A program made the position numbers and the translations under genes. A stretch of 62,707 nucleotides of DNA, filler included, from Pseudomonadota bacterium (lineage in GTDB: Bacteria > Bdellovibrionota_F > JAHFAK01 > JBDREC01): the NCBI GenBank assembly GCA_043820105.1. It is 4 parts of 4 records of this genome, joined end to end, with 100 filler letters (N's around TTAATTAATTAA, not from the genome) between each part and the next. Parts side by side here need not be neighbours in the genome. Positions count along the whole stretch, not along the records: positions 6,527 to 36,822 come from JBDREC010000080.1; 3 more parts are not named here. One strand, 5' to 3'. Numbering within the stretch: position 1 is the stretch's first letter; each line of letters opens with the position of its first letter. The notes beneath the pieces are model-generated. The model was not told the DNA's origin. It ran no database searches and worked only from the letters and a program-made list of their open reading frames with translations. Shown one piece after another: positions 6,266-49,087 of this stretch.

Positions 6266-6281
6266 TGGCATGGAAATTGCT
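6266..6281 (+). promoter_or_regulatory. Sigma-54 promoter for a pilin-type leader
   Basis: TGGCAT-GGAAA-TTGCT (GG-N10-GC); IHF-like AATCGAGGACTTA at 6238-6250. Confidence 0.8.
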
Positions 6282-12611: not shown

Positions 12612-12627
12612 TGGCATTAAACCTGCA
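12612..12627 (+). promoter_or_regulatory. Sigma-54 promoter
   Basis: TGGCAT-TAAAC-CTGCA; IHF-like TAAGCTCTTGAAA about 30 bp upstream. Confidence 0.65.
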
Positions 12628-14783: not shown

Positions 14784-17357
14784 CTATATCAATAATTCCT
14801 CAGCCGGCTTTCTCTGATTATAATTAGAACTCATCGAATATCCATAAGCTCCAGTATTTGCTATCAATAAAACATCATCTTCACATGTTTCTGGTAAACA
14901 CCTGTCAAAACCAAGTGTATCGCCTGATTCGCAAATAGGTCCGACAATATTAGCTAGCATCTTTAATGGCTTATCAAGTTTTGATAAGTTGACAATTTCA
15001 TGCCAGGAACCATAGAGCATTGGTCTAATAAAAGAATTCATACCTGCTGAGGTTCCAATGTATGTGATATCTCCTTTGGTTTTGATTTGGTTTACTTTGG
15101 ATATTAGGACGCCAGCTTCAGCCACCAAAAAGCGACCAGGTTCCATCCATATTTCAATGTCAGGATTATCTTTTTTGAAATCATTTAAAAGTTTATCAAG
15201 TTTTTTTAAATTAAGGTTTTCTTGATCAGGTCTTTCAGGGACTCCAAGACCTCCACCAACATTAATGATTTTAACATGGTCAAAGGATTTGGAGATTTCA
15301 TATAAAAATTCAAGCATATCTAACCAATGAGAGCTATCAAAAATGCCACTTCCTGCATGAGCGTGAAGTCCAATGATTTTACAATTAAGATTTTTGCATA
15401 GCTCGAGCACCTGGGGTAGCTCATTTGGACTTATTCCAAATTTTGACTCAAGACCAGCTGTTTTGACAAAGCTGTGATGGCCTTTGCCAAGGCCGGGATC
15501 TATTCTTAAAAAGATATCTTTGTTTTTAAAAATATTAGACCAGGATTTTAAAGGGTAGGTGCTATCTAAATTTATTAAAACATTTTCTTTTAAGGCATTT
15601 TCAAATTCATATTTTGATGCAAAATTTGGTGTAAATAAAATTCTTTTATTTTCAATTCCACTAAACAGATTTTTTATAAGCTTTACTTCATTTAAAGATA
15701 CACATTCAAAACCAAGACCAAGGCTTTCAAGTATTTTAAGGATTTCAGGATTACTATTTGCCTTTATTGAATAAAAGGTTTTTGAAATTGAAGTTAAAGA
15801 TTTAAGTTGAGTTGCTCTTTTTTCAATAAGCTCTTTATTATAAACATAGGCACAGGGAATTTCCTGTGCGACCTTTAGCAAGTCATCTTTTCTTTTTTGC
15901 CACCATTTAAAAGGCTTTTGATCTAAGGTAATTTCACTATCTGCAAAAAGCTCAGTCCAGGTTGGACCAAGTGAAAGCCTGGTTTTAGCGTGTTTAAATA
16001 AGAGCTCATGAAGACCAACAACAAGCTTATCTGCCTTTTCATCATCAAGCACAAAGGTTATATTAAGATCAGAAGCTGCCTGAGAAACAAGATAAATTTT
16101 TTGTTCTTCAAATACTTTAAGGGCAGATGATATCTTATGCAGAATTGATCTAATATTTCTGCCTACAAGACTTATAGCACTACAACTTGATATTATTTTT
16201 GTAGAGCAAATATTTGAAAGTCTTAAAATGAGCTCTTCAAGAATTTCAGGATTAATTGCATTTGCTGTGTGATCAAGTGAAACTGTTAAATTAGCCTCAG
16301 AAGTTGAAACAAGATCAATTGATAAATCAAGGTCTTTGAATATGGAAAAAATATTAGCCAAAAATCCAACTTGATGCCACATCCCTATTGTGTCCATTGA
16401 AACAAGGGTGATTCCTCTTTTTAGGGAAATAGATTTAACACTTGCTCCTTGATCAAGGGTATTTGAAGAAATTAAAGTGCCTTTAAAGTCAGGTCTATCA
16501 GTCCAACAGATTTGCAGGGGAATATCATTTTTCATAACAGGATAAAGGCATTTTGGGTGCAAAACTTTAGCTCCAGTTGAAGCAATTTCTTGAGCTTCCT
16601 TATATTCAAGGGACATTAAAAGACGAGCCTCTGGAACTGCATGAGGATTAGCTGTGAAAAGACCTGGAACATCAGTCCAGATCTCACATTTTTCGGCGTT
16701 TATCTTGGATGCAATAATGGTAGCGGAAGTATCTGATCCACCGCGACCTAATAAGACAGTGTTGCAATTTTCATCAGAGGCAATAAATCCTTGGGTGATT
16801 AAAATCTCAGCACTGATTGAAGAAAGGCTTTCTTTGAATTCCTTGTCATAACTAAAGTCAACTTCACAACTACAATATTTGCGCCATTGATTATCTGAAC
16901 TTGGCTTTGCTTTAAGATATTTTCTAATGTCCACAAAGCTTGCATTTAGTTTGTTTTGTTTTAGAAAGAGGCTTCCAAGTTGAGTAGACATTAATTCACC
17001 ACAGGCCATTACTTGGGCGCTTATTTTGGGACTTGCTTCACCAGTTAATTCAATTCCCTTTAAAAGGCGTTTTAAGATTTCGAATTCATTTGGCTTAAAA
17101 TCCTTGATTTCCATCTCTTTTGCTAAAGCAAGATGCCTTTTTATTATTGCTTCAATTTTATCATCAGAAATAGTATTAATATTTTTTAGCATGCCTTCTA
17201 GTTCATTTGAAATGCCTGATAAAGCAGAGCAAACTAAAATGACTTTATCATTTTCTTTTAATTTATTCTTAGCAATGTCTTTTATGTTTTGCCAATTTGT
17301 TCTAGTTGAAACTGATGTTCCACCAAATTTTAAAACAATCCATTTTTGATCGCTCAA
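14784..17357 (-). CDS. lysAC: Bifunctional aspartate kinase / diaminopimelate decarboxylase (LysC-LysA fusion)
   Basis: KFGGTS, LGRGGSD, ACT domains; then YSIKAN, HAHAGSG, EPGRF, GPICESGD, GAYG. Confidence 0.95.
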   Translation of the reverse strand: MSDQKWIVLKFGGTSVSTRTNWQNIKDIAKNKLKENDKVILVCSALSGISNELEGMLKNINTISDDKIEAIIKRHLALAKEMEIKDFKPNEFEILKRLLKGIELTGEASPKISAQVMACGELMSTQLGSLFLKQNKLNASFVDIRKYLKAKPSSDNQWRKYCSCEVDFSYDKEFKESLSSISAEILITQGFIASDENCNTVLLGRGGSDTSATIIASKINAEKCEIWTDVPGLFTANPHAVPEARLLMSLEYKEAQEIASTGAKVLHPKCLYPVMKNDIPLQICWTDRPDFKGTLISSNTLDQGASVKSISLKRGITLVSMDTIGMWHQVGFLANIFSIFKDLDLSIDLVSTSEANLTVSLDHTANAINPEILEELILRLSNICSTKIISSCSAISLVGRNIRSILHKISSALKVFEEQKIYLVSQAASDLNITFVLDDEKADKLVVGLHELLFKHAKTRLSLGPTWTELFADSEITLDQKPFKWWQKRKDDLLKVAQEIPCAYVYNKELIEKRATQLKSLTSISKTFYSIKANSNPEILKILESLGLGFECVSLNEVKLIKNLFSGIENKRILFTPNFASKYEFENALKENVLINLDSTYPLKSWSNIFKNKDIFLRIDPGLGKGHHSFVKTAGLESKFGISPNELPQVLELCKNLNCKIIGLHAHAGSGIFDSSHWLDMLEFLYEISKSFDHVKIINVGGGLGVPERPDQENLNLKKLDKLLNDFKKDNPDIEIWMEPGRFLVAEAGVLISKVNQIKTKGDITYIGTSAGMNSFIRPMLYGSWHEIVNLSKLDKPLKMLANIVGPICESGDTLGFDRCLPETCEDDVLLIANTGAYGYSMSSNYNQRKPAEELLI

Positions 17358-17520
17358 GTTAACTCCTGTTAATAAGTGGTAAGTGGTAAGCTGTAAGTGG
17401 TAAGTTAAGTGAAATTACAAAATAATCAATTATATTTTTCTACAGTTTCTAATATAACATATCATAAAAACATCTTGAGATATCGGCTTTTGTGCTTGCA
17501 TAAAGGTGCAAAGATTCTCC

Positions 17521-18096
17521 ATGAAAATAAAAAATAGAAGACGAACGTTCGATTGTAAAATTATTATTAAAGAAAGCAATATCTTTCATATTACGTGGCA
17601 GTTTCATAGCAAATAATTAAAGGCTTGTTTTTTAATAATTAATTAAATCCAAATTCATGAATATCTTAATCCAAAAAATTGGATTATTCATGATTTTGGA
17701 TATTTATTTCTAAAATAAAAATTAATCGAAATTCACTAATTGCTTGAATTTATAGAAAATCCCAAAAGGCCACTTAAAGGGCATGAAACTTGCAAATTGA
17801 GTTTTTGTTTGACTAAACGAGATCTTTTCGCTATATGTCAATTTCCCAAAACGGTTGGCGAGGCAGTTATGAAACGAATAAATTCTATTTTTTATCAAAA
17901 TTCCCACATATATAGTATATTTCCTTCAAATCTTAACGATCAAGAGTTGCAAAATGAAATTGGAAATTTGGAAGAATATACAAATAAAAAGTTAATGGAG
18001 ATTTCAGGTTATATTAAAGAAAATTGCTATAATAATGGAGTTTATTCAATGAATGAAGAAGTGGATATTGTTTTTGTGGAAAAGAAGTTGAGTTAA
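17521..18096 (+). pseudogene. Degraded reading frame with four in-frame TAA stops; 5' part resembles a Y1 (RAYT-like) transposase start
   Basis: MKIKNRRRTFDCKIIIKESNIFHITWQFHSK* is in frame with ORF 17740-18096; FHITWQ resembles the RAYT N-terminal H-x-T motif. Confidence 0.35.
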
Positions 18097-18187
18097 GTCT
18101 ATGTTGATTTAGAAAAAGTTTATATGAAAGTAGATGATGGAGACTATTAAGATATTTTATTCCAATTTGGGGAGGTGATTTAGAGCT

Positions 18188-19021
18188 GTGTTAAAAAAAG
18201 GAGAATTTAACTTGAATTCAAATGATTGGAAAGAAAAAATAAGTATTCTGATGGAAGGGAATCTAACTAATCTATTCCAAGATTATTCACAGGTTGATGG
18301 CTTCACTTTTGAATCAAACGAAAATTACGGGATACTAATTTCTCCTTATAACTCTTATTTGTTAAATACAGTTTTATATTTTAATATTGTTGATGAGAGC
18401 AAACTTGAATTTTATATTTCTAATATAATTAATACTTTTAGCGATAAGCATCTATCCTTTACATGGAGAATTGGTGGATTATCTCGAAATAAAGATGTTA
18501 TAAAATTATTATTAGAAAAGAATGGATTAAAGTATCTGGAAGATCAACCTTTAATGTGGTTAGATTTTTTGGACTATTTTAAATCCATGAGTTTAAGTAA
18601 TCCAAGTAAATTAAATATTAAACAGATCGTAGATGGTGAGGATTATTGTGATTATTTAGAAGTGTTATCCAATGGTTTTCAACTTGATCCTATTATAACT
18701 TCTTTTTTTATGAAATTTCAAAACTTTTTCGGCTTTAAGAAAAGCAGTAAAATTAGAAACTTCGTAGGATATTATTACGATAAACCAGTTTGTTGTTCTT
18801 CTATATATACAGATAATAAAAGTTGCTCAATTTGTAATGTTACTACAAAAAAAGAATATAGAAAAAGAGGATTTGGCAGGGAAATAACTTTACATAGTAT
18901 TCGGGAAGTTCACGAATTAGGTTTTCCTGGTGTAGGTTTATTTTCATCATTTGATGGATATGAGTTGTATAGAAAACTGGGATTTTTAAAAATCTCAAGT
19001 AACATAATTTATAGGATGTAA
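18188..19021 (+). CDS. GNAT-family acetyltransferase
   Basis: VTTKKEYRKRGFG acetyl-CoA motif A and LYRKLGF. Confidence 0.88.
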   Translation: MLKKGEFNLNSNDWKEKISILMEGNLTNLFQDYSQVDGFTFESNENYGILISPYNSYLLNTVLYFNIVDESKLEFYISNIINTFSDKHLSFTWRIGGLSRNKDVIKLLLEKNGLKYLEDQPLMWLDFLDYFKSMSLSNPSKLNIKQIVDGEDYCDYLEVLSNGFQLDPIITSFFMKFQNFFGFKKSSKIRNFVGYYYDKPVCCSSIYTDNKSCSICNVTTKKEYRKRGFGREITLHSIREVHELGFPGVGLFSSFDGYELYRKLGFLKISSNIIYRM

Positions 19022-19057
19022 TAAAATATAATAAACTAGTTCTAAAGGAGTTTTGTT

Positions 19058-19168
19058 ATGAGTAGGAAAATAAATAAACGAAAAACACAAAAGAATTCTA
19101 ATTCTGTGATTAAATTTAATTTAATTGCTACAAGTAAAATGATTGGTTGCGCGAATAAAATAAGTTAA
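19058..19168 (+). CDS. Putative RiPP precursor peptide, 36 aa: MSRKINKRKTQKNSNSVIKFNLIATSKMIGCANKIS
   Basis: SD AAGGAG 7 nt before ATG; directly upstream of the ThiF gene; below the ORF-track cutoff. Confidence 0.75.
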   Translation: MSRKINKRKTQKNSNSVIKFNLIATSKMIGCANKIS

Positions 19169-19251
19169 AATATATTTATTAAAATTGATATTATATATTA
19201 ATTATTAGGGTTTTCTTAATAATAATTATATTTAACTATTTCAAGATTGAT

Positions 19252-20388
19252 ATGAGGATTATATTTGTGAGTAATGAATGCTTAATTAGTGATAAATTGT
19301 CGCTTTCAAAAAATGTAGAGATAGTTTACGAGGGGAATAATCTCATTAGTGTAATGCAGTCTGACTTATCAATAATTGAAACTTATAAATGTAATGTTTT
19401 AGTAAAAGAAATATTTAAACTATTACATGATAATGATGAAACTTTAGATAATTTATTTGTTAAGCTCGAGGTTAAAAATGATAGTCTTAAAAAAGAAATT
19501 ATTAAATTCTTATTTGAATTAGAAAAGAAAAATATAATTGAAAATAAAACAAAATTAGAAAGAACAAGACCCGCTGAGATAAACAGAAGTATATTGGAAA
19601 GATATTCATCTCAGTTTTCATTCTTTTCTTCATTTGAAAAGAATAAAAAGTCTCGTTTTGATTTTCAAAAAGATCTTATTCAATCAAAAATACTTATCTT
19701 AGGTATAGGGGGAATAGGTTCAATAGTGTTTGAAGGTCTTCTGAGGAGCGGAGTAAATAATTTTATTTTATATGATTATGATAAAGTTGAAGTTAGTAAT
19801 CTTAATCGACAGATTGTTTATACTTATGACGATATAGGAAAATATAAGGTTGATGTAGCCATAGAGCGAGCAAAAAAAATAAATTCTGATTGTAGAATTA
19901 AAGCTAATAAAATAAAAATCGATAGGACTATTTCTATAGAAACCGTTATTAAAGATTCTAGTCTAGTAATTGTTTGCTGCGATGAACCTAATATTGAAGA
20001 CATCGTGGACATTGTAAATCCAGCCTGTGTTAAATACCAAAAATCATTTATTGTTGGGGGAGGGTATTCTGCACATATAGGGTCACTTCCGATAACGATA
20101 ATACCTAAAAGATCGATATGTTGGAATTGCTATAAAAACTTTATATATAGGAACAATACAATAAAGTCAAAATATTATAAATTCAAGAACACTACATTGG
20201 GAAGCAGTATTATGCCCACAGCTGGTATAATAGCAAATTATACGATTATTGAAGCAATAAAGGTGATAACAGGATATTCTAAACCTAACTTTACTAATGT
20301 GGTTAGTGAATTAAGTTTTACTGATATGAAGGTAGAGAAAATATCAATATCACCTGATAAAAAATGCCAAAGTTGTAGGAATTTTTAA
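19252..20388 (+). CDS. ThiF/E1-like adenylyltransferase with N-terminal RRE-like extension (MccB/PaaA-like architecture)
   Basis: GIGGIG, DYDKVEVSNLNRQ, CWNC and CQSC Zn ligands; ~110-aa N-terminal extension ending RYSSQ. Confidence 0.9.
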   Translation: MRIIFVSNECLISDKLSLSKNVEIVYEGNNLISVMQSDLSIIETYKCNVLVKEIFKLLHDNDETLDNLFVKLEVKNDSLKKEIIKFLFELEKKNIIENKTKLERTRPAEINRSILERYSSQFSFFSSFEKNKKSRFDFQKDLIQSKILILGIGGIGSIVFEGLLRSGVNNFILYDYDKVEVSNLNRQIVYTYDDIGKYKVDVAIERAKKINSDCRIKANKIKIDRTISIETVIKDSSLVIVCCDEPNIEDIVDIVNPACVKYQKSFIVGGGYSAHIGSLPITIIPKRSICWNCYKNFIYRNNTIKSKYYKFKNTTLGSSIMPTAGIIANYTIIEAIKVITGYSKPNFTNVVSELSFTDMKVEKISISPDKKCQSCRNF

Positions 20389-21809
20389 TGTTAAGAATAT
20401 TGAGTGTCATATTTTTAATCTGTTTTAGTTTATGTACTTGTACTAATAAAAATAAAGATATTAAAAAAGAAATAATATCTATTGAGCTGTTGTCACTTGC
20501 ATATAATTATGATGTGAGTGGATTGCTAACTTATTCCGCATTATCTGTTATTAATGATACTAGTGCACACTTATTTAGCTTAGAAAAAGACTTAACAATT
20601 CGAGGTAATTTAGCAAAACATTATTTAGTTAATGACACTTATACTAAGTATAAAATATTATTAGATAAAAAATATCTTTCTCTTAGAGGAGATTCTTTAA
20701 CTAGTGAAGATGTTGTATTCTCTTTTACATACTTGTGCAAATATTCATCATATATAAGAGGATTATTATCTTCAGTTAAGGGTGTAAGTTCATGTAAAAA
20801 AGAAAAATGTGAAATTGGAATTAGGGAAGTGGATCAATATCAAGTAGAATTTGAACTTGATAGTCCGGATCCTAATTTTATAAAAAAATTATCCTCCCCA
20901 TTTTTTATTATTTTTAAAAAGGGGAAGTCTTATTATGAAAAAATAGGGAAATGTAAGATACCATATCAAACGGGTCTAGGGAATTTAGCTGACTGCAAGG
21001 ATGGTTTTTTACAGGTTGTTTTCAAGGAAAAAGTGGTTAATATCTATGATTCACAGGCGAAGTTCGATCTTAGGACAAAATTTGATGGCAAATTATTAGA
21101 TGAAAATCCAGGAAAGACTTTCTCACCTTCTCTCATAGTGCTTTCTTTAGCTGCAAATCCAAAATCAAACCTTTCAAGAGAAGTTAGGTTAGCTGTTCTG
21201 GATAGTGCAACTAGATCTAGGGCCATTTTGTCAGAAATGATTAAATTAAAAGTATCCTATACATTTGTTTCCGAATGGTTTATGGCCAAAAAATATAAAA
21301 TTAAAAAACATAATCAGAAATTACCTTATATCGATAAAAAACTTTGTCCATCTCGACCAATGAAGTTTATCATAGATAAATCATTGCCCGAAAGAAATAA
21401 TCTAAGAAAATGGTTAAAACAACTATCGCCTTGTGAAATAGAAATAATTGAGTATCAAACAGAAAGGGTAGTTTATGAATATGCAGATTCTGATTTTGGT
21501 TTTTTATGGGTAACTCCAGATTATTTAGATTATTACAATATTTATTCAATTTTTGATTGTGAAGAAAATATTTGTTTTTTTAATTGGCAAGATAATCAAT
21601 TGCAAACACTATTGAATAAAATAAAATCCGCTGATTTATCGGAGGAGAAAAAAGCCTTAATATCACAGAACATTGAAGAGCATTTAATTAATAATGGATA
21701 TGTAGCTCCTCTCCTACAGTTAAATACATGGATGAAAATTAATAATGCAATCTTACCTGTTCATCCTGCTGGATTAGCACAACTTAAAATAAGTGATTTC
21801 ATTTTATGA
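20388..21809 (+). CDS. Family-5 (peptide/nickel-type) solute-binding protein, probable lipoprotein
   Basis: Signal peptide with Cys; GNLAK, LTSEDVVFSF, VEFELDSPDPNF motifs; no permease adjacent. Confidence 0.7.
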   Translation: MLRILSVIFLICFSLCTCTNKNKDIKKEIISIELLSLAYNYDVSGLLTYSALSVINDTSAHLFSLEKDLTIRGNLAKHYLVNDTYTKYKILLDKKYLSLRGDSLTSEDVVFSFTYLCKYSSYIRGLLSSVKGVSSCKKEKCEIGIREVDQYQVEFELDSPDPNFIKKLSSPFFIIFKKGKSYYEKIGKCKIPYQTGLGNLADCKDGFLQVVFKEKVVNIYDSQAKFDLRTKFDGKLLDENPGKTFSPSLIVLSLAANPKSNLSREVRLAVLDSATRSRAILSEMIKLKVSYTFVSEWFMAKKYKIKKHNQKLPYIDKKLCPSRPMKFIIDKSLPERNNLRKWLKQLSPCEIEIIEYQTERVVYEYADSDFGFLWVTPDYLDYYNIYSIFDCEENICFFNWQDNQLQTLLNKIKSADLSEEKKALISQNIEEHLINNGYVAPLLQLNTWMKINNAILPVHPAGLAQLKISDFIL

Positions 21810-24364
21810 AGAAGTCAATAGTAAGGATGCTGGGAAGAAATTTATTTAAATCACTATTTGTTTTATTTATATTGGCATGTATTTCTTTATGTGGCGTGAT
21901 TTTTATTATAAATATTATTGAGCAAAATAAGGCGGAAAATGCAATTTCAAATTCTGTATTTTATGCATTGCAAGAACCGGTTAGAAACTCAGATCTAATT
22001 TCAATCATAAGGATTATTAAAAGTTATCAGAAAGCAAATTATTTTGCAAGATTTTGTATTAATTTAAATGGGGGAACCGAATTAATTCAAGAAAAAGAAT
22101 GTAGTATATTAAAAAAAAGAATCTATAAAGTACCCTTATCAGATAAAAATATTTTAATTGCTATAAAAGCAAAATCAACATGGCAGTTATGGTATGTTGT
22201 TATTTTTGTTTCTTTAATGTCTTTCATCCTATTATTGATTATTTTGAAAATTTATAAAACTGGTAATGAAATTGCATCTGAAATAAAAATATTAGGAACT
22301 GATATTGAATTTAATAATTTTCAATATTATGAAACATTTATTACTCAAAGAAAAATAATTAAAATTAAAGAAGAACTAAAACAAAAATCCCGTCTAGCCT
22401 CCGTCGGCCAAACCGCGGCCATGATCGCGCATGATGTTCGAAAGCCTTTTACTAGTCTTGAAGTTTTATTGGGTTTGATTCCGGCGCGAAAAAATGATGA
22501 TGAATTTATGAAAAAGGCGATGAATGATATTCGAGGGCAGCGAAAGCAGGTTTCTGATATGCTTAATGATATTTTGGAATTTACGGGTAAGAAAGAAGCT
22601 AACATTGAAAAATGCAATCCAGCGACGATTATTTCTTCTGCGATTTTTGAAACTAGGGCAAGCTTTAATGATACTTTTGTTGAATTTATTTATGATTTGA
22701 AGCATACGGGGTATTATAATATTGATATTTATAAGGTCACTCGTGTTTTTACGAATATAATTGGCAATGCTGTTGAAGCAATGAAAGGCGTACAGTGTAA
22801 AGCATACAGCGTACGGCGTGAAGATGAAGATATTAATGAGATTTGGTTTAAGACTTGTGATGGTGAGATAGAAGGCAAAAAGTTTATTCAAACTACTATT
22901 GGAAATTCAGGTAGTTTTATTAGCAATGAAGATAAAAAAAGACTTTTTGAAGCTTATTTTACCAAAAATAAAAAGGGTGGAACAGGGCTTGGCCTGGCGA
23001 TTTGTAAAAAGGTTATAATGGATCATGGTGGTAGCATTCAAATCAATTCGGACAAGGAATCAGGAACTGAGTTTGTTTTTACTCTTCCTTATCTTGATGG
23101 GGATGAATCGCTTGTTAATTTAAACTTAATAAAAAATTCAACACAGATTTTAGATCAAAATGAAACTCATGATTCAATAGATACTCAAGACATGCTTTCA
23201 AGTATCAATGATATTAACAAAAAACTTGGAAGAAAGCTTCGGCTTCTTGTATTAGATGATGAACCCTTGTTCAGACTTTCTTTGAGAAATCTTATAATAA
23301 AAAGTGAAGAACTGTCTCCTGTTCTTGATATCAGTGAGCATGAATCCCCTGAAAGTGTATTGGAATATCTTAAAGAAACAGAAGTTGATTATGCTATACT
23401 TGATATTGATCTCGGAGTCAAAAAAATGAATGGCTTAGAGCTTTGTAAGATTATTAGCGATAAATATCCATCAATTAAAATGATTATCCATTCAAATAAA
23501 AATAAAACTGAGAATGAGAAACAGGCGAAAAAAGCAGGAGCACTTGAATTTGTTCCAAAACCAATGACAGTGGTAAGCTTATTGAGCTTTTTGAGTTTGT
23601 CGATTTTAGATAATAGATCTTTGGAATTTGGAACTCAGAGCACAGAACTCAGAAATCAGCATAAAGATAAAAGAAAAGGTGATTTGAAAATTCTTGTTGT
23701 TGATGATGAATTTATCATAAGTATGGGACATAAGATATTAATTAATGATTATTTTAAAAAACGTAATTTTGTAAAATCAGAAGCTGAAATAATTAAATAT
23801 GAAATATTAACTGCTACAGATCCTGAGATGGCTTTGGAAATATTGAAAAGTGAAAAAATTGATATTATTCTTAGTGATTTTTATTTTGATGGAAAATCAA
23901 TGAATGGAACCGGCCTTGTGAGTGAAGCTAGTAAGCTTGATCCTAAAATAAGATGTTTTGTTATTTCTAATTCTTTAGGTGATGCATGTAAACAGGAAGT
24001 TTTCAAAGCAGGTGCAAAAGAATATTTTCAGGCTCCCTTGACTTGTGAGATGCTTGATAAAATGTTTTGTTTTTTAAATGGCCAAACTTCATCTTTTGAT
24101 AATAATTTTCAAAGATTTAATTATAGCAAAAGTAAAATAGATTCAGATGAATTAATTAGCCAAACAGATGATAAATTTAAAAAGCTTTCTCAATTATCGG
24201 ATAAATTACACCATGATATTAATAAACCGTATTCAATGGCCGTTTTAACAGTAAATGAAATCAAGAAATTAACGGATGATGAAAAAATCATAAAACTAAT
24301 TGAAGATAATATTATTAAGTCGCTTGATGACTTGAGAGAGTTTAATGATAATTTAAAATGCTGA
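21806..24364 (+). CDS. Membrane hybrid histidine kinase (2 TM, HisKA, HATPase, two receiver domains)
   Basis: AHDVRKP H-box, NAVEA, GGTGLGL; LVLDDE and LVVDDE receivers. Confidence 0.93.
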   Translation: MKKSIVRMLGRNLFKSLFVLFILACISLCGVIFIINIIEQNKAENAISNSVFYALQEPVRNSDLISIIRIIKSYQKANYFARFCINLNGGTELIQEKECSILKKRIYKVPLSDKNILIAIKAKSTWQLWYVVIFVSLMSFILLLIILKIYKTGNEIASEIKILGTDIEFNNFQYYETFITQRKIIKIKEELKQKSRLASVGQTAAMIAHDVRKPFTSLEVLLGLIPARKNDDEFMKKAMNDIRGQRKQVSDMLNDILEFTGKKEANIEKCNPATIISSAIFETRASFNDTFVEFIYDLKHTGYYNIDIYKVTRVFTNIIGNAVEAMKGVQCKAYSVRREDEDINEIWFKTCDGEIEGKKFIQTTIGNSGSFISNEDKKRLFEAYFTKNKKGGTGLGLAICKKVIMDHGGSIQINSDKESGTEFVFTLPYLDGDESLVNLNLIKNSTQILDQNETHDSIDTQDMLSSINDINKKLGRKLRLLVLDDEPLFRLSLRNLIIKSEELSPVLDISEHESPESVLEYLKETEVDYAILDIDLGVKKMNGLELCKIISDKYPSIKMIIHSNKNKTENEKQAKKAGALEFVPKPMTVVSLLSFLSLSILDNRSLEFGTQSTELRNQHKDKRKGDLKILVVDDEFIISMGHKILINDYFKKRNFVKSEAEIIKYEILTATDPEMALEILKSEKIDIILSDFYFDGKSMNGTGLVSEASKLDPKIRCFVISNSLGDACKQEVFKAGAKEYFQAPLTCEMLDKMFCFLNGQTSSFDNNFQRFNYSKSKIDSDELISQTDDKFKKLSQLSDKLHHDINKPYSMAVLTVNEIKKLTDDEKIIKLIEDNIIKSLDDLREFNDNLKC

Positions 24365-24422
24365 ATTCAGAAATTTGAATTAACATAAAATTATGCCTGC
24401 GATTTTGTTAAGGGAGGCCAAA

Positions 24423-25874
24423 ATGAAGAAATATAAGCTTATTATTATTGAAGATGATTCTTTGCAAAGGACCTATGCACAGGAAATATTGGAAAATGAA
24501 TTTGAGCTATATTTTTCTCAAGAAATAAATGAGATTGTAAGAAATATTGATGAAAATAATATAGATCTTGCACTTATTGATATTGATCTTGGAGCTGATT
24601 ATACAGGCATTGATATTTTGAACTTAATAAAATCAAAATGCCCTAATTGTGTATGTATTATGGTTACTTCAAGTTCATTATTGTCTGTTGTTAGAGAGTC
24701 AATTAAGCAAGGAGCCGCTTGTTATCTAAAAAAACCATACACACAAGATGAACTAAATATTCAAATTCAAATAGGCATTATAATTCGAGAAAAAAATAAA
24801 GAATCTTTAATTAAAGATGAAATTATCAAAGTAAATCGTAATGCCCACCTAAATAAAATAATTGGGGAAAGCAAAGCAATAAAACAAATAAAAGAACAAA
24901 TAAATGAAGTATCCCAATATCATAATGCCACTATTTTGATAACAGGTGAGTCAGGAACCGGAAAAGAGCTTGTAGCCAGGGCCATACATGAAACTTTAAA
25001 ATCAAGCTCTCGACCATTTGTTCCAGTTAATTGTGCTGCAATTCCAGCAGAGCTTTTAGAAAGTGAATTATTTGGCCACGAAAAGGGTTCATTTACTGGA
25101 GCCTGTGATCGAAAAATTGGTTGTGTAGAACTGGCATCTGGAGGTGATCTTTTCCTTGATGAGATAGGAGAGTTGTCTTTAAGTGCACAGGCAAAACTAT
25201 TAAGAGTTATTCAGGAAAGAGAGTTTACAAGAGTAGGGGGATTAAAACCGATAAAGTCTAATTTTAGACTCATTTCCGCAACAAATAGAGATCTCAAAAA
25301 ATTAAAAGAAGAGGGAAAATTTCGAAATGATCTTTATTTCAGAATATTTGGTTATCCAATCCACATTCCACCCCTTAGGGAAAGACTTGAAGATATTCCA
25401 TTCCTTCTTGAGCACTTTATTGCAAAACAATCGTCAAGGCTTGGAAAAAAACTATGCGGATTTGATAATGATCTAATTAATCTATTTTCTTCTATGAATT
25501 GGGAAGGAAATGTAAGAGCTTTAAAAAACCTTATTGAAATAATGGCGATTAAGGCTAAATCTGAAAGGCTTAGTACAGTAGATTTGGATATGTTACAGTA
25601 TTGTGGAAATGAAAAATCCGAAAAACATAATTTCTCTAATTGTTCTATCGACAGAAATTTCTATGATAATCTGAAAGAAAACGGCTTGTTTGATACACTA
25701 AAAATTATTGAAAAAAATATAATTAAAGATATGTTAATGAAGTCACGAAATCAATCAAACGCAGCTGAAGCTCTGAAAATCCGAGCAACAACCTTATCAG
25801 AAAAGATCAAAAAATATAAAATTGATGTTAGGGAATTAAAGCCAAAGAAACCTGGAAATAAAGGCTCGTCTTGA
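24423..25874 (+). CDS. NtrC-family sigma-54-dependent response regulator
   Basis: REC domain, GESGTGKE, ESELFGHEKGSFTGA, FLDEIGE, C-terminal HTH; ATG 24423 follows GGGAGG. Confidence 0.95.
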   Translation: MKKYKLIIIEDDSLQRTYAQEILENEFELYFSQEINEIVRNIDENNIDLALIDIDLGADYTGIDILNLIKSKCPNCVCIMVTSSSLLSVVRESIKQGAACYLKKPYTQDELNIQIQIGIIIREKNKESLIKDEIIKVNRNAHLNKIIGESKAIKQIKEQINEVSQYHNATILITGESGTGKELVARAIHETLKSSSRPFVPVNCAAIPAELLESELFGHEKGSFTGACDRKIGCVELASGGDLFLDEIGELSLSAQAKLLRVIQEREFTRVGGLKPIKSNFRLISATNRDLKKLKEEGKFRNDLYFRIFGYPIHIPPLRERLEDIPFLLEHFIAKQSSRLGKKLCGFDNDLINLFSSMNWEGNVRALKNLIEIMAIKAKSERLSTVDLDMLQYCGNEKSEKHNFSNCSIDRNFYDNLKENGLFDTLKIIEKNIIKDMLMKSRNQSNAAEALKIRATTLSEKIKKYKIDVRELKPKKPGNKGSS

Positions 25875-25883
25875 TTATTTTTA

Positions 25884-25899
25884 TGGCACCAATATTGCA
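25884..25899 (+). promoter_or_regulatory. Consensus sigma-54 promoter
   Basis: TGGCAC-CAATA-TTGCA. Confidence 0.85.
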
Positions 25900-25965
25900 G
25901 ATAATCATGCTTAATTGGTATAAACAAGGATTTTCATTCAAATCCTATATTTGGGGGCATTTTAA

Positions 25966-27228
25966 GTGAAACGTATAAAATCAAAAAAATATCTTATCAA
26001 TAATCTATTTCTTCTTTATCTTTTATCAAATCTTATTAGTGCAAATGCATACAGCAATTGTCTAAATCTTTTTGATAATGTAAGTGAATCAAATGAATTA
26101 ATAGACTTAGTAAGGAACTTAAGTTCAAATGCTGTAAATGAAAAAGGTGAAAGGGCTTTTGAAGTAGAATATCTTGATGATCTAATGCTTGAAAGACAAA
26201 TATCATCTCTCCCTCGTTTTATTCAAAGTGATCCAACTTTTGATAAAAAAACAAGTCCAATTGTTATTGATGTTGCAAATTTAGAAAGTGATAGGGCTCA
26301 AAGAATTTATCAAATGTCAAAAGATGTTGCTATAGCTTTAAATGAAATTTTTACGGAAAATAAAAATCCATTAATTATTTGGATGCTTGATAAGCCAAGT
26401 TGGTCTGATTTATTTGATATGCCCTATGCAATTAGTTCAGGTTTTGGAAGTGTTACGTATTATATTAAAGATATGAGCAGCATATTTTTAGGAAGAAGTG
26501 GAGATCCACATGCTTATCAGGCACATTATTCCTATATCAAATATTTTTTACGAGATACTGGAAACAAGCATCTTGAAAAAATTAAAAAAGCTTTTGGTCT
26601 TAAGAGTGTTGACGAGCTTGATCAATTTTTAATGGGTATAGAGTCAGATATTTTATTTAAATTTAGACATATTCAAGCCTTGCCTCATGAAATAGGTCAC
26701 CACTATTTATGGGGAAGTGGAATTAGAGACAGAATAAGTGATACTGTGACTGAGATCTTAGCTGAACTTATATCAAAATCTGTTGATTTTAATGGTTTCA
26801 ATAAAGATAGAAAAGCTTCGGATCCTGATTACGAAAAAGGCTTTGATTTATTAGATGAAGTTGTTTTTCAGATATTTGATGGAAAAATTCATTTAGAAGC
26901 TAAAAAATATCTTTTAAAACATCCTGAATCGGATCTTTCTGATTTAATAAATGGTGCCAAGTTTTGGTATAATCAAATAGTAAGTAAAGAATTTGCTCAA
27001 AAATATTCACAGATTCCTGGTTTTACTCAAAAGCTTTTTGAAAAGCTACTTGCCTTTGAAGGCCAAATCACTGATCAAATCTTTGTATTTTTTGTAGCTG
27101 AAACATTAAGCCAGACAAGTGGCGAGAAATGGACAGTTCAAAAACTAATCGAATCAAATATTATTATGGAAGCTCTGTTTCTCGATATTGATATAGAATT
27201 ATTAAAACAAATCCTAAGAAAATCCTAA
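25966..27228 (+). CDS. Exported protein with HExxH motif, putative zinc metallopeptidase
   Basis: Signal peptide ending ANA; LPHEIGHH followed by TEILAE (gluzincin-like third ligand). Confidence 0.55.
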   Translation: MKRIKSKKYLINNLFLLYLLSNLISANAYSNCLNLFDNVSESNELIDLVRNLSSNAVNEKGERAFEVEYLDDLMLERQISSLPRFIQSDPTFDKKTSPIVIDVANLESDRAQRIYQMSKDVAIALNEIFTENKNPLIIWMLDKPSWSDLFDMPYAISSGFGSVTYYIKDMSSIFLGRSGDPHAYQAHYSYIKYFLRDTGNKHLEKIKKAFGLKSVDELDQFLMGIESDILFKFRHIQALPHEIGHHYLWGSGIRDRISDTVTEILAELISKSVDFNGFNKDRKASDPDYEKGFDLLDEVVFQIFDGKIHLEAKKYLLKHPESDLSDLINGAKFWYNQIVSKEFAQKYSQIPGFTQKLFEKLLAFEGQITDQIFVFFVAETLSQTSGEKWTVQKLIESNIIMEALFLDIDIELLKQILRKS

Positions 27229-27231
27229 AAA

Positions 27232-27272
27232 GTGGGTGGCACATTTTTGATCGTTTCTTGGACGCCACATTT
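27232..27272 (+). repeat. 41-bp REP-like repeat, copy B
   Basis: GTGGGTGGCACATTTTTGATCGTTTCTTGGACGCCACATTT. Confidence 0.9.
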
Positions 27273-27413
27273 TATTTTACTATTTTTTATTGCGACCAAA
27301 TGTTCTCAAAAAAACCCATAAATAATGGCAAAATTGCGACTTTAAGTACAAGGCTTATGAGCTTGGTTTCGTGTAAGTTGCTGAAATGAAATATGAAAGG
27401 TGCAAGTCCGTCT

Positions 27414-27429
27414 TGGCACACCTTGTGCA
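27414..27429 (+). promoter_or_regulatory. Sigma-54 promoter with no downstream + strand CDS
   Basis: TGGCAC-ACCTT-GTGCA; IHF-like TAAGTTGCTGAAA at 27374-27386. Confidence 0.75.
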
Positions 27430-27439
27430 ATAGCATATT

Positions 27440-27512
27440 AATAGCTTTTTCATATTCCTCCTCCTTGAAAAAGATATATTTTAAGCCAGTTGAGAAATCA
27501 ACTGGCTTTTTT
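27440..27512 (+). ncRNA. Putative ~73-nt sigma-54-dependent sRNA with anti-SD loop
   Basis: Promoter, then stem CTTTTTCA/TGAAAAAG with loop TATTCCTCCTCCT, then terminator. Confidence 0.6.
27483..27512 (+). terminator. Intrinsic terminator
   Basis: AAGCCAGTTGA-GAAA-TCAACTGGCTT followed by T-tract. Confidence 0.88.
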
Positions 27513-27578
27513 GTTTTATATTCAATGTAAAATCTGACAATAGGACACTGTTTATTAAAATCATTTTTTTGTTATAAA

Positions 27579-27619
27579 GTGGGTGGCAGATTTTTGCTAG
27601 TTTCTTGGACGCCACATTT
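27579..27619 (+). repeat. 41-bp REP-like repeat, copy C
   Basis: GTGGGTGGCAGATTTTTGCTAGTTTCTTGGACGCCACATTT. Confidence 0.9.
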
Positions 27620-27637
27620 CATTATTTCAACTAATTA

Positions 27638-30600
27638 CTATTCACTACTTAATTGTTGTCTGATTTCTTGTATTTTTTCTCTTAGTTTTTTATGTAAACT
27701 AATTGAATCTGGTCCTAGTTTTGTTACCATTTCATCAGGAACTGTTCCATAGACTGTTTCAAGAACAAATAAGTATCTTGACATAACATCGGCTTGACCT
27801 GAATTATTTATTGTTTCAACAAGCCAAGGTGTTGATTTAGGTATTTCGGCTACTTTTTCTCCTGTTCTTTTTGCCTCTTTCCATGCTTCTGAATCTAGAT
27901 ATCTTGTCATCCACATATTATAAATTTTATGTAAGAAGTCTATTGGTTCAATAAAATGGGTTTCAATAGGTGTTAAACCAGCTTTGGTTTTTTTAATATT
28001 GTCAGTTGCTGTTTGAAAGGTGCCATGAGCATCGAGAAAATCAATAAGAGCCATAGCATACATAAATTCATCATAAGATCTTGCTGCAACTGTAATAATA
28101 TTTAGAGTAAAAACTAAAACTGGATCATTAGAATCAGCATGATTAAATCTATACTCAACTCTATAACGGCTTCTAGATCCACCTTTTTTTCGCCAATTTG
28201 TTTCTGAAGTTCTATCCTCAATTTCTAGATCAGGATCAAAACCTTCAATTACATCTCTTGCTTTCTGGACATCAAAATTCATGCTAAGACCAAAAACGAC
28301 CCTAGCCGGAAGTTTGTCCTCAACAAGTACATATCTGCTGGCAAGATCAGGTTTTTCGAGCTCTTCTTTTAATTTATAAGTTAATCCACGTGGAGAAGTC
28401 AGTCTTTGTCCTTGCTTTCTAAGTTGAGCTAATAACTTTGCTGATTTTCCACTAAGAACAAATGGTCCATCGTTTGCTTTGAGTTCAGGTAAGTGCTGCC
28501 ATATAAACTCGCCGAGTTCACGAAAGGCAGTTCTTTGTGTAATTCCAAATAAAGCATCAAAAACAGGTCTAAAACTTGACATATCAACATGTTTAAACTC
28601 AGTTGAAAGTAATTTATCCTGCTGAACAGCTTCCAGTAGCCGTGTTCCAAAGTTTATAGCTCTTATCATTTGGTTTGGATTACTTGCAAAGCTAGCATAA
28701 GGTATTAGTATTTGATAAGGACTTATTATAGTGAAAACTTGTCCATTAAGAACCACTGTTAAGCTAGAATCCTGTAAAGTGCTGCCTTGTTTTACTAATT
28801 GAAAGCCTCTTTCTTGAGTTATTAATAATCTTTCAATTGCCTCTAAATCCATTGGGGTATCAACTATAATATGAATTGCTGCTTTTGTAGCAATTAGACT
28901 TTTCAGATAATAAAAATCAGCATTTACATCAGCGTCAGCAGCTGAAATATATTCACCAGGTTTCCCTTTTTTATATCTAGCATATCCTCTTTGCCAAGTT
29001 CCTGGATTATTAGCTAGAAAAATTGCAGTGGCAGTAGCATCTCTTAGTTCTGTTAGATTTAACTCATGTACCCGTCTTGTTAATGAAAGGGTCATGCCAG
29101 GTCCTGCTGACCTATCTAGTTCAATGGAATCTGAGAGGATATCTCTTTCATCATAATCTGTCTCTGTATAGATGTCTTTTGCATTGGCTCTGGCTTCAGC
29201 TAGTCTAGTAATGGCGGTTATCATAGCTATGTTAGGATCATAAGGTTCAGGATCACTTCTTCTGGTTTGTCTTCTTGGAGGACGGGCAGCAAGAATAGCT
29301 TGTGTTTGGCTTCCATCTTTATTTGTAACTGTTACATGGCTTCCACTTTTTCTGCCATTTAATTTATTTTGTAGATCTGTCCAATTAGTTTGCTTTGTAT
29401 CAAATAAGTGGCCTTGTTCTCTTAATAACTTTCTAACTCTTAAATGAGCCATTGGATTTTCTGTTAATATTTGATTTAATTTATCAACTGTTGCAACAGT
29501 AATATTAGGAACCACAGTGCTTGTGCCTTCAGGGAATTCTTCTGGCAATAAACTAATAAACTCATGCCATGAAATTATTTTGCCACTAGTTGGTCCTGCT
29601 AACATCATGCCTTTTTTAGAATAAACTCTGCTGATAGCACTTGCTAGTCTTTCATATAAAAGATTTAAAAGATGCTCTTCAAATAATGAATTTCCACTTT
29701 CCTTTAGTTTTTGAATTTCTCTTATTAAAGTTAAAACATATGGATCTTTCCAGACTTCTTCCATTATATCAGCTTGAGTGACTTCAGGATTATCACCAAT
29801 TGTTTCATCTTCATTTTCACCTATTGATGGTTCTTGGACATCTTCTCCTTCTTGACCTGGAAGATCAATGTTTTCACCTTCAATGCTTGGTAATATTGCA
29901 AAGCCTTCTTCTTCACCTGGAAGTTTGTGATCTTCTTCTTGACCAGGTACAAGTGGAGGAGGTGCTATGGCTGGCATTGCTGGAGCTCCTTCAAGCAATG
30001 ATGGGTTTTCTACAGCTTCAAATTCCACCTGATTTCTTAGACTTTCTAAAAAGGAAGTGTCAAGAATAGGTCGCTCAGGACTAAATGGTAATGAATTGAA
30101 ATCAAAGGTTTGATTAGTAGTTGGAATAAATGTTTTTCTTTTACCATTTCCAGTTGCAGGTGAACTGCTTTCTTGTATAGCCAATGATTCATTTGATGAA
30201 GAAGCTAAAATTGTATTTTGACCTGGATTTTCATTTGGATTCGTTTGGTCTCTTACAGATTCAAGTTCAAAACCCGGTGTGCTTTGCGCTTTTACCGCTT
30301 GACTTGAATCAACATCAATAGCTTCACCGAGGCCTCTTCCTTCGTATTGTGCTTGATTGGCAAGGTCCCTTGAAACTTGGATCCTGTTTCCATGTTCAAG
30401 AGGGTTTGGTCTGTTTTGTGATAACAACCTTGTTTCAAGTTCATATGGTAAAAATGTTTCTCCTGTGGCTTGGCTAATATAGGCTCTCATGCTGTCAACT
30501 TCAGCTACTAAAGCCTCATATTGTCCTCGATGTAATTGCCCTCTAATATAGGAGTCATTTAAATTTGCTTCTAAGCTGCTTAACTTGCTTTCAACAACTG

Positions 30601-34581: not shown

Positions 34582-34597
34582 TGGCATTTATATTGCA
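34582..34597 (+). promoter_or_regulatory. Sigma-54-like promoter before recQ
   Basis: TGGCAT-TTATA-TTGCA; IHF-like TAACTAGTTGAAA upstream. Confidence 0.55.
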
Positions 34598-36822: not shown

Positions 36823-36922
36823 NNNNNNNNNNNNNNNNNNNNNNNNNNNNNNNNNNNNNNNNNNNNTTAATTAATTAANNNNNNNNNNNNNNNNNNNNNN
36901 NNNNNNNNNNNNNNNNNNNNNN
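36823..36922. other. Artificial contig linker
   Basis: N44-TTAATTAATTAA-N44. Confidence 0.99.
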
Positions 36923-48718: not shown

Positions 48719-49087
48719 ATGAAAAGAAAAATATTAATTGTGGAGGATGACAAAGATACTGCTAGGCTTTTAGACGTTATTGTAAAGTCTGCTGGATTTG
48801 AGTCTAAGATCGTGAATGACGGAGAAGAAGCCCTGGACATAATTGAGGAATATCACCCTGATTTGGTTTTACTTGATTTGATGATGCCAAAGGTTCATGG
48901 TTTTGCAGTATGCAAACAAATTAGAGACAATAGAAATTATGATGATATAAAAATTTTAATTGTGTCAGCCAAAAGCTTTACCGCTGATATGAAAAAAGCA
49001 GAAGAACTAGGGGCAAATGGCTATTTGACAAAGCCATTTAGAAAAGCGGAATTGATTGATGAAATGAATAAACTTCTTGGAGCTTAA
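48719..49087 (+). CDS. Single-domain response regulator
   Basis: IVEDD, DLMMP, KPF. Confidence 0.93.
   Translation: MKRKILIVEDDKDTARLLDVIVKSAGFESKIVNDGEEALDIIEEYHPDLVLLDLMMPKVHGFAVCKQIRDNRNYDDIKILIVSAKSFTADMKKAEELGANGYLTKPFRKAELIDEMNKLLGA

Follow-up and report, generated by a model that had tools for sequence, protein, structure and literature searches.

Does a bacterial operon that encodes a peptide-modifying enzyme also encode the machinery that senses what the enzyme makes? This question is raised by a gene cluster at 17.8-27.6 kb of a 62.7-kb stretch of DNA (the window, along the whole of which all coordinates are counted) from an uncultured, low-GC (~30%), diderm bacterium of groundwater metagenomes. 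In this cluster, a gene for a ThiF-like adenylyltransferase, a type of enzyme known from peptides that are made on ribosomes and modified after translation (RiPPs), is followed directly by genes for a family-5 binding protein, a hybrid histidine kinase and an NtrC-type activator of sigma-54 promoters. The most likely reading, to which we assign a probability of roughly 0.4, is that the binding protein and the kinase detect a ThiF-modified peptide, or a derivative of it, with the output passing through sigma-54. The genes and their arrangement are genuine and uncommon. From them we infer that a 36-aa peptide encoded next to the enzyme is its substrate, as well as the chemistry, the export step, the identity of the binding protein's ligand with the product of ThiF, and a dependence, if any, on cell density.

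A coupled enzyme, binding protein and kinase

Every gene between 17.8 and 27.6 kb lies on the plus strand. The order is a 75-aa open reading frame (ORF), a GNAT-family acetyltransferase, a 36-aa ORF, ThiF, the binding protein, the hybrid kinase, the activator and an HExxH protein, and a 410-nt spacer separates the last of these from a convergent gene for a 1529-aa protein. ORF and domain calls recovered all the parts listed in a preliminary description of this DNA, co-oriented and where it had placed them. The overlaps of stop and start codons that it reported were read directly in the DNA as TAATG for ThiF and the binding protein (20386-20390) and as ATGA for the binding protein and the kinase (21806-21809). 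These three genes are translationally coupled, and the cluster is one operon. Sequence words of the window occur in three groundwater-metagenome runs from two studies (fractions 0.21, 0.15 and 0.08) among the eight sequencing runs that matched, and none of the eight is an RNA dataset.

The order ThiF, binding protein, kinase recurs on an independent metagenome contig of 3392 bp (L007), which covers neither the position of the 36-aa ORF nor the activator. On this contig, ThiF is represented by its C-terminal 209 residues, 41% identical to those of the window and 50% identical to another relative, P0056. The gene for the binding protein, whose product is 43% identical, overlaps the end of ThiF by 14 nt, and the kinase gene starts at a TAATG with a 1-nt overlap with that for the binding protein. 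The kinase is 31% identical over 438 aa, and its periplasmic domain of ~90 residues is especially well conserved, with both cysteines kept. In addition, P0056 and a relative of the binding protein (P0055) are each found on one 6626-bp contig of the same source, and therefore probably represent a third locus. The alignments thus establish the trio as a conserved, translationally coupled unit. The preliminary description had made conservation of the gene order a requirement of its proposal, and the trio does recur in L007, the one locus retrieved. What is new is the order of the three genes with their overlaps, together with a conserved periplasmic sensor domain, on a second contig. No cluster combining ThiF, a binding protein, a kinase and a sigma-54 activator was found described in searches of full article texts or in two reviews of ThiF-RiPPs, neither of which mentions a histidine kinase; a spreadsheet of ThiF clusters belonging to PMC11256085 covers only Lactobacillales, according to its legend.

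The binding protein (473 aa; 20388-21809, plus strand) scores 28.9 bits against PF00496 (SBP_bac_5), for which the cutoff is 32.4. All five members of its family match PF00496, the best with an E value of 4.9e-8. When the family profile was compared with the PDB, its C-terminal third matched DppE (E 8.8e-9) and its N-terminal third matched an Opp-like protein (E 1.7e-8), in colinear fashion. Judged by these profiles, it is probably a divergent family-5 (Opp/Dpp-like) binding protein, and it is probably a lipoprotein. A set of 5.8 billion clustered proteins holds only four relatives, which are 43-46% identical, are all 470-475 aa long with a lipoprotein-type N-terminus, and share with the window's protein eight invariant cysteines. 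A scan of viral contigs with the alignment of this family gave 40 pattern matches, none of them related.

The hybrid kinase (852 aa; 21806-24364, plus strand) was recognized by Pfam matches to HisKA, HATPase_c and two receiver domains. A periplasmic domain of ~90 aa, with two cysteines, lies between two transmembrane segments and is followed by HisKA, HATPase_c, the two receivers and a helical tail of ~90 aa. This tail (24086-24361; residues ~761-852) contains the sequence LHHDINKPYS after the second receiver, which we take to resemble the H-box of kinases. Searches with the C-terminal 102 aa as a histidine phosphotransfer (HPt) domain or a dimerization and histidine phosphotransfer domain gave nothing in Pfam or the PDB with an E value below 0.01. 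The tail could be an unrecognized phosphotransfer module that replaces the missing HPt protein.

The NtrC-family activator (24423-25874, plus strand, with the frame open from 24393) probably starts at the ATG at 24423, which follows AAGGGAGG. It consists of a receiver, an AAA+ domain with its lid (Sigma54_activat, E 8.3e-67) in which the GSFTGA loop is intact, and an HTH_8 domain. Against the model for LuxO it scores 305.5 bits (cutoff 800), and its best model is the generic one for NtrC (339.6 bits, cutoff 558.6).

The adenylyltransferase and its candidate precursor

The enzyme is encoded at 19267-20388 on the plus strand and is also readable from an ATG at 19252; the GTG at 19267, which has a GAGGA site, is likely the true start. 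The protein matches PF00899 with an E value of 2.6e-47. Its N-terminal peptide-binding domain (approximately residues 9-103 of the 373-aa form) is followed by an E1 domain with the GxGxxG and NLNRQ motifs, the Asp and two CxxC pairs. In an alignment of 63 sequences, there is little or no variation at the nucleotide-binding G146, G148 and G151, at the Arg/Lys pair R181 and K194 and at the Mg-binding D239. C285, C288, C367 and C370, the two CxxC pairs of the zinc site, are nearly invariant and align with the cysteine pairs of MccB. Of the proteins with a solved structure, MccB matches the sequence best (E 1.9e-21, query residues 107-377), followed by PaaA (E 1.9e-19).

An AlphaFold2 model of the enzyme, based on 63 relatives, has a predicted local confidence (pLDDT) of 92.9. 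In a Foldseek search with this model, chains of MccB came out on top (E 1.5e-25, TM-score 0.71-0.73). A second aligner superposed model residues 9-372 on residues 1-348 of MccB (Z 31.0, rmsd 3.2, 328 residues) and model residues 14-364 on PaaA (Z 28.2). Structures of ThiF and MoeB cover model residues 104-371 only. Because MccB and PaaA align over the ~100 N-terminal residues and ThiF and MoeB do not, this part is predicted to have the peptide-binding fold of MccB and PaaA. A weak match to the PqqD family at residues 33-96 (E 0.0019) agrees with a peptide-binding domain. As modeled, the enzyme belongs with the ThiF-like adenylyltransferases of the MccB/PaaA type; its earlier designation as an E1 enzyme of this type with an N-terminal peptide-binding domain (RiPP recognition element) is borne out by a match of the predicted fold over the whole length.

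An exhaustive search for relatives of the enzyme at E values of 1e-30 or lower returned 73 proteins, mostly of 340-390 aa, the nearest being 38-39% identical. A scan of genome contigs produced 149 pattern matches, which reduced to six loci with no close relative among them. The best of these loci, a 226-aa single-domain ThiF beside housekeeping genes, was rejected.

Directly upstream of ThiF, a 36-aa ORF (19058-19168, plus strand; MSRKINKRKTQKNSNSVIKFNLIATSKMIGCANKIS) encodes the candidate precursor peptide. It is the sole sizeable ORF between the GNAT gene and ThiF, ends 98 nt upstream of the latter, and has a strong ribosome-binding site (AAAGGAG, 8 nt upstream). In position and orientation it corresponds to mccA and paaP, which lie upstream of the genes for their enzymes. 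The peptide contains no Asp and no Glu, which leaves the C-terminus as the one carboxylate; possible nucleophiles are Cys31, Lys34 and Asn33. Reads matching the window assembled into exact contigs of 161-408 nt and cross-organism joints only, and gave no information on variants of the peptide ORF. An attenuator between this ORF and ThiF was considered and discarded (z +0.24).

In a predicted complex with two copies of ThiF, the peptide scored 0.46, 0.46 and 0.45, as against 0.00 in all three controls, a result classed as weak support. At least 75% of contacts agree among the runs. The mark used for such complexes is passed by 58 of 80 solved complexes and by two of 110 mismatched pairs; passing scores of 0.60 or lower comprise only seven of the 80 solved complexes, plus both of the mismatches that pass. 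Also, a solved MccB-MccA complex exists, and likeness to it may contribute to the score. Taking model and placement together, the 36-aa peptide is probably the substrate of ThiF. For the small peptide as the substrate, as in the preliminary description, the predicted complex gives weak support, and the peptide is seen in one locus only.

It is also conceivable that the 36-aa ORF does not encode the substrate, or is no gene at all, and that ThiF acts on another peptide, a protein C-terminus or a metabolite encoded elsewhere, in which case the trio of ThiF, binding protein and kinase would be a signalling unit. We consider this improbable. It would account for the fact that the ORF has no support from other loci, the conserved part seen elsewhere beginning at ThiF, and for a peptide with a Ser terminus, no Glu and no Trp that fits no known class and whose pLDDT in the predicted complex is only 53-54. 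However, it leaves aside the strong ribosome-binding site and the placement shared with mccA and paaP, the contrast of 0.46 with the three controls, and the retention by ThiF of a full peptide-binding N-terminal domain.

The GNAT-family protein (277 aa; 18188-19021, plus strand) carries an acetyl-CoA motif, RKRGFG. All its Pfam GNAT matches are below the cutoffs (E 2e-4 to 1e-3). In the ESM Atlas, it is placed with clusters of ~260-aa GNAT proteins (feature score 0.98, with 222 of 256 features; TM-score 0.89). Upstream of it, a 75-aa ORF (17869-18096, plus strand) with a GAGG ribosome-binding site and no Pfam family is possibly the operon's first gene. The GC content falls to 25.6% at 18001-20000, which holds the GNAT gene, the peptide ORF and the start of ThiF, compared with 29-33% in the flanks. 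The two ends of the cluster, biosynthetic and sensory, may differ in their history.

Sigma-54 sites, outputs and neighbouring features

The sequence TGGCACCAATATTGCA at 25884-25899 (plus strand) matches the sigma-54 consensus at 11 of 11 positions. It lies 10 nt past the stop codon of the activator gene, and the HExxH gene starts 67 nt after it. When the window was simulated 200 times with a Markov model, 0.05 sites with 11 matching positions were expected (one observed), 0.53 with at least 10 (three observed) and 4.7 with at least nine (11 observed). By sequence, the site has the spacing of a -24 GG and a -12 GC that defines sigma-54 promoters, as well as a nearby activator of the GAFTGA type. 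The sigma-54 promoter that had been assigned to this position, before the HExxH protein and with the activator gene directly upstream, is thus retained.

The HExxH protein (420 aa; 25966-27228, plus strand) has a HEIGH motif and a signal-peptide-like N-terminus. No sequence match was found in Pfam, NCBIfam or the PDB. Leads from the ESM Atlas point to clusters of peptidase-MA proteins (score 0.92 on 160 features; TM-score 0.45-0.53), and the protein is a probable secreted zinc metallopeptidase of clan MA.

At the other end of the cluster, GGGCATGAAACTTGCA at 17779-17794 (plus strand, nine of 11 positions) is located 75 nt before the 75-aa ORF and may be the operon promoter, which would provide feedback. 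Given 11 sites with at least nine matching positions and 4.7 expected, about four in ten of such sites would arise by chance. A nested palindrome (ATCCAAATTCATGAATA, TAATCCAAAAAATTGGATTA and TATTCATGATTTTGGAT; 17646-17701) is located ~80-130 nt before the 17779 site and may serve to bind a regulator. If these elements are real, the operon would be autoregulated.

A third motif, TGGCACACCTTGTGCA at 27414-27429 (plus strand, 10 of 11 positions), precedes a candidate RNA of ~77 nt (27440-27516, plus strand), the 5' end of which is set by the presumed promoter. The RNA would consist of a stem-loop exposing UUCCUCCUCCUU and an intrinsic terminator (27483-27508, 11 bp, with its U-tract on the plus strand). 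Its fold has a z-score of -4.49, and none of 200 shuffled sequences folds as well. No Rfam family matched at its gathering score, and Qrr was not among the weak matches. We give even odds that a sigma-54-driven small RNA at 27440-27516 is real.

However, the motif lies inside a 32-aa Cys-rich ORF on the minus strand (27355-27453; MKKLLICYCTRCAKTDLHLSYFISATYTKPSS, beginning MKKLLICYCTRCAK), which may be a gene for a small protein or a second peptide. There might accordingly be no sigma-54-dependent RNA here, but a gene for this peptide, with the terminator ending transcription of the peptidase gene; we hold this to be slightly less than an even bet. It explains why AAGGAGGAGG stands 4 nt before an ATG that opens a frame of 32 codons, and it turns the 27414 motif into the reverse complement of a stretch that codes for CTRCAK. 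The distance of 255 nt from the peptidase stop codon to the terminator, and the lack of an Rfam family, also agree with it. It does not explain a motif of 10 out of 11 positions when the expectation for the window as a whole is only 0.53 sites of this quality, a U-tract on the plus strand, or an RNA that folds far better than shuffled sequences (z -4.49), and no sigma-70-like promoter is listed for the 32-aa ORF. The C-rich loop UUCCUCCUCCUU is the complement of the very strong ribosome-binding site AAGGAGGAGG. Both elements could therefore be real as an antisense pair, in which the RNA is antisense to the start of the ORF. Of the small RNA suggested in the preliminary description, the promoter-like site and the terminator are present, and the 32-aa ORF on the opposite strand competes with it. 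When duplex energies were calculated against 34 start regions, the best values (-28.2 to -21.3 kcal/mol) were within the random background (mean -16.4, first percentile -27.8), and no target is therefore named.

A dispersed 46-nt repeat, AAGTGGGTGGCA.ATTTTTG..GTTTCTTGGACGCCACATTT, has three copies in the window, compared with 0.06 expected, each just 3' of a transcription unit and in the same orientation. Copy 1 (27230-27275, plus strand) is 2 nt past the peptidase stop codon and 140-185 nt upstream of the 27414 motif. Copy 2 (27577-27622, plus strand) follows the terminator and precedes the end of the convergent gene for the 1529-aa protein, so that copies 1 and 2 bracket the candidate RNA and the 32-aa ORF. 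Copy 3 (the region 829-~874, minus strand) is just downstream of a gene pair resembling MNT-HepT. The repeat contains TGGCA(C/G), without a proper -12 element. A hairpin was rejected, because z-scores of -0.99, +0.21 and -0.06 do not indicate a stable structure.

Further sigma-54-type motifs on the plus strand are found at 12612 (TGGCATTAAACCTGCA, 68 nt before a gene for a 685-aa protein with beta-helix and MopE motifs), at 34582 (TGGCATTTATATTGCA, 10 of 11 positions, 31 nt before recQ) and at 6266 (TGGCATGGAAATTGCT, 336 nt before a gene for an AAA_22 protein). Upstream of the cluster and divergent from it, 14784-17357 (minus strand) encodes an 857-aa fusion of an aspartate kinase, with ACT domains, to a pyridoxal phosphate-dependent Orn/DAP/Arg decarboxylase (lysA-like). 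Direct repeats TAAGTGGTAAGT with a spacing of 21 nt (17373-17405) lie beside the start of this lysC-lysA fusion gene. The gene that converges on the end of the cluster (27638-32227, minus strand) encodes the 1529-aa protein, which belongs to no family and has several hydrophobic segments. A stand-alone receiver protein of 122 aa is encoded at 48719-49087 (plus strand), 21 kb from the cluster. Elsewhere on the minus strand are a gene pair at 889-1603 for a nucleotidyltransferase (Polbeta/NTP_transf_2, 98 aa) and an NTase_sub_bind/HepT-like protein (141 aa), likely an MNT-HepT toxin-antitoxin module; a gene for a 1956-aa protein with only a sub-threshold match to DUF4215 (36875-42745); and a gene for a 724-aa FliG with an N-terminal extension of ~400 aa (59536-61710).

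The proposed circuit and known systems

In the circuit that we propose, the ThiF-like adenylyltransferase would bind the adjacent 36-aa peptide through its N-terminal domain and activate the C-terminus of the peptide, leading to a C-terminal modification or to ring closure onto Cys31, Lys34 or Asn33. Acylation by the GNAT protein may be a further step. The resulting product, whole or as a fragment, would reach the periplasm through an exporter encoded elsewhere and be bound there by the family-5 lipoprotein, which would set the activity of the hybrid kinase through its small periplasmic domain. The kinase in turn would control the NtrC-type activator. The activator would fire the sigma-54 promoter of the secreted metallopeptidase, probably also the second promoter, for the small RNA, and possibly the operon's own promoter.

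Several observations weigh against this circuit. No ATP-binding cassette (ABC), major facilitator superfamily (MFS) or other transporter domain was detected in the scanned ORFs of the window (32 of at least 150 aa and nine shorter, non-overlapping ones), which agrees with the earlier statement that an ABC permease and ATPase are missing; in the same ORFs, neither an exporter nor an HPt domain is present. Both absences count against a self-contained circuit; a gene for an HPt protein could lie outside the window. At the biosynthetic end, the peptide fits no known class of ThiF-RiPP precursor by sequence. It ends in ...ANKIS, that is, in Ser and not Asn, and no ORF of at least 5 aa with a terminal Asn occurs in 18990-19300. 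It lacks the Glu-Glu core of the pantocin A class, it has neither the C-terminal Cys nor the Glu of GRC thiolactone precursors (and Pfam finds no radical SAM domain, the GRC partner, in the cluster), and it has no Trp, on which the hydrophobic WWxxx/SWxxx/RWxxx C-terminus of enterofaecin precursors and the indolylamide of the Ind class are based. Its ORF is known from a single locus, since L007 ends before the corresponding position, and the score of its complex with ThiF falls within the weak band. A word-based search for relatives of the GNAT protein recovered, from 434 candidates, only the query itself, and this protein may thus lie outside the conserved system.

Other points concern the sensor and the output. 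The model of the binding protein from its five-sequence alignment has a pLDDT of 51, too poor for a fold search or for inspection of a pocket. According to the portions of PMC8050422 available, family-5 binding proteins also bind sugars, nickel and autoinducer 2 (AI-2). The nearest plasmid-borne relative of the enzyme, from Lactiplantibacillus plantarum, is 32.5% identical and adjoins an MFS transporter, and its locus contains no binding protein and no kinase. Upstream of the biosynthetic genes, the only sigma-54-like site is the one with nine of 11 positions. A comparison of the regions upstream of the three sigma-54-type sites for a shared activator site gave two 9-mers at chance level and no common dyad. 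Finally, the small RNA as a second output has the rival described above.

A different view of the operon is that it is a RiPP cluster, for an antibiotic or another product, whose binding protein, kinase and activator sense an unrelated external cue such as environmental peptides, oligosaccharides or a metal, and that this cue switches on the operon and the peptidase. We judge this view somewhat unlikely. In its favor, the characterized ThiF-RiPPs include the antibiotics microcin C and pantocin A, according to the part of PMC12250964 that was available, and family-5 binding proteins are generalist nutrient binders that, in the case of CBP and ChiS, signal the availability of sugar (PMC8050422, available in part). 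Moreover, no evidence ties the ligand of the binding protein to the ThiF product. However, the overlaps of ThiF, binding protein and kinase genes are kept at 41-43% protein identity, which argues for more than loose regulation. Of the exporter and immunity genes found in known antibiotic clusters (MFS, ABC and MccF-type), none is among the scanned ORFs. Also, the family of the binding protein is tiny, with four relatives, at least two of which accompany this clade of ThiF.

We continue to favor the sensing of a ThiF-modified peptide, or its derivative, through the binding protein and kinase. Stronger versions of this reading are unlikely. One of them is that the cluster makes a peptide autoinducer of a diderm bacterium, modified by ThiF, probably cyclized at its C-terminus, and read back by the binding protein and kinase; if so, the autoinducer would act through the sigma-54 activator on the secreted peptidase, the small RNA and the operon itself. 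Another, equally doubtful in our view, is that the system performs true quorum sensing. Indirect indications of it are the conserved linkage of the genes for synthesis and sensing and the site with nine of 11 positions, accompanied by palindromes, ahead of the operon. In any case, an enzyme is coupled to a receptor-like pair of binding protein and kinase, and this coupling is kept across ~60% protein divergence, which makes the hypothesis a testable one. If the ligand proves unrelated to the product, the operon would still represent a new regulatory architecture for a RiPP cluster.

The cluster is outside every described product class of ThiF-RiPPs. It resembles the microcin C system of E. coli in having a two-domain enzyme with the same predicted fold as MccB throughout (Z 31), a small ORF directly upstream and a GNAT in the cluster, MccE of microcin C carrying a GNAT domain. 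Unlike in microcin C, the peptide is 36 aa long with a terminal Ser rather than Asn, ThiF is only 22-24% identical to MccB, and the window has no MccC-type MFS exporter among its scanned ORFs and no MccD or MccF. Where microcin C clusters have export and immunity genes, a binding protein, a kinase and an activator follow. The likeness to PaaA and pantocin A consists of an N-terminal peptide-binding domain joined to an E1 domain (Z 28.2) and a precursor of ~30 aa. However, the peptide here has no Glu-Glu core, nor any other acidic residue.

ThiF-like RiPP enzymes are an expanding class, and their products have been proposed as signals only in Firmicutes, as far as the available portions of PMC12250964 and PMC11256085 go. 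According to the same portions, Firmicutes ThiF-RiPPs adjoin quorum-sensing regulators, and signal roles were proposed for them but not demonstrated (PMC12250964, PMC11256085). Ring closure by ThiF-like enzymes is described in Firmicutes for GRC (the thiolactone of GrcB) and enterofaecin (the imide of EnfB) in the available part of PMC12250964, and indolylamide macrocyclization is described for the Ind class (IndF) in that of PMC12150305. These systems are like the one proposed here, to the extent covered by those parts, in that carboxylate activation in a short precursor is the task of a ThiF-like enzyme and in that signalling genes adjoin the clusters. They have, in the same sources, Rgg/SHP regulators or AgrC-like kinases with LytTR regulators, as well as transporters, whereas in the operon described here, whose host is a diderm, the enzyme is accompanied by a hybrid kinase, a binding protein of the periplasm and an activator of sigma-54 promoters, with no transporter. 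In contrast to those systems, its candidate precursor lacks a Cys/Glu pair at the C-terminus, a WWxxx motif and any Trp.

On the sensor side, precedents for SBP_bac_5 proteins in signalling include CBP, which works with the hybrid kinase ChiS, and AibA, which binds AI-2 (PMC8050422, available in part). In Vibrio cholerae, as in the present operon, an SBP_bac_5 protein is encoded beside a hybrid kinase, which CBP controls, according to the available part of that paper. At the level of protein families, at which the comparison was made, the systems differ in that CBP binds chitin oligosaccharide and is linked to an ABC transporter, whereas here ThiF is coupled upstream and no transporter is present.

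The LuxP-LuxQ-LuxU-LuxO-Qrr system of Vibrio is similar in architecture: a hybrid kinase has a binding protein at its side, the sigma-54 activator carries a receiver, and the output may include a small RNA. It differs in that the binding protein here is of family 5 and not of the LuxP type, in that LuxU, or any HPt protein, is missing from the scanned ORFs, in the score of the activator (305 bits, the LuxO cutoff being 800), in an RNA that is not Qrr, and in a proposed signal that is a peptide and not AI-2. The Lux-like wiring envisaged in the preliminary description thus holds for the architecture and not for its components, as the window has no LuxO equivalog, no Qrr and no HPt protein.

In idea, the proposed circuit is also similar to agr of Staphylococcus, in which a C-terminally cyclized ribosomal peptide is sensed by a membrane kinase, although Pfam finds no AgrB, AgrC-type or LytTR domains here. 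A thiolactone, as in agr, would be one conceivable product. Ribosomal peptide signals with dedicated receptors are textbook knowledge in Gram-positive bacteria; to our knowledge, they are little documented in diderm bacteria. If the operon does sense its own product, it would widen the known signal chemistry of bacteria and add new partners for family-5 binding proteins. As an autoinducer system, should it prove to be one, it would constitute a fourth wiring for peptide signalling, beside the agr, RRNPP and ComD/NisK types, and one that lies outside Firmicutes.

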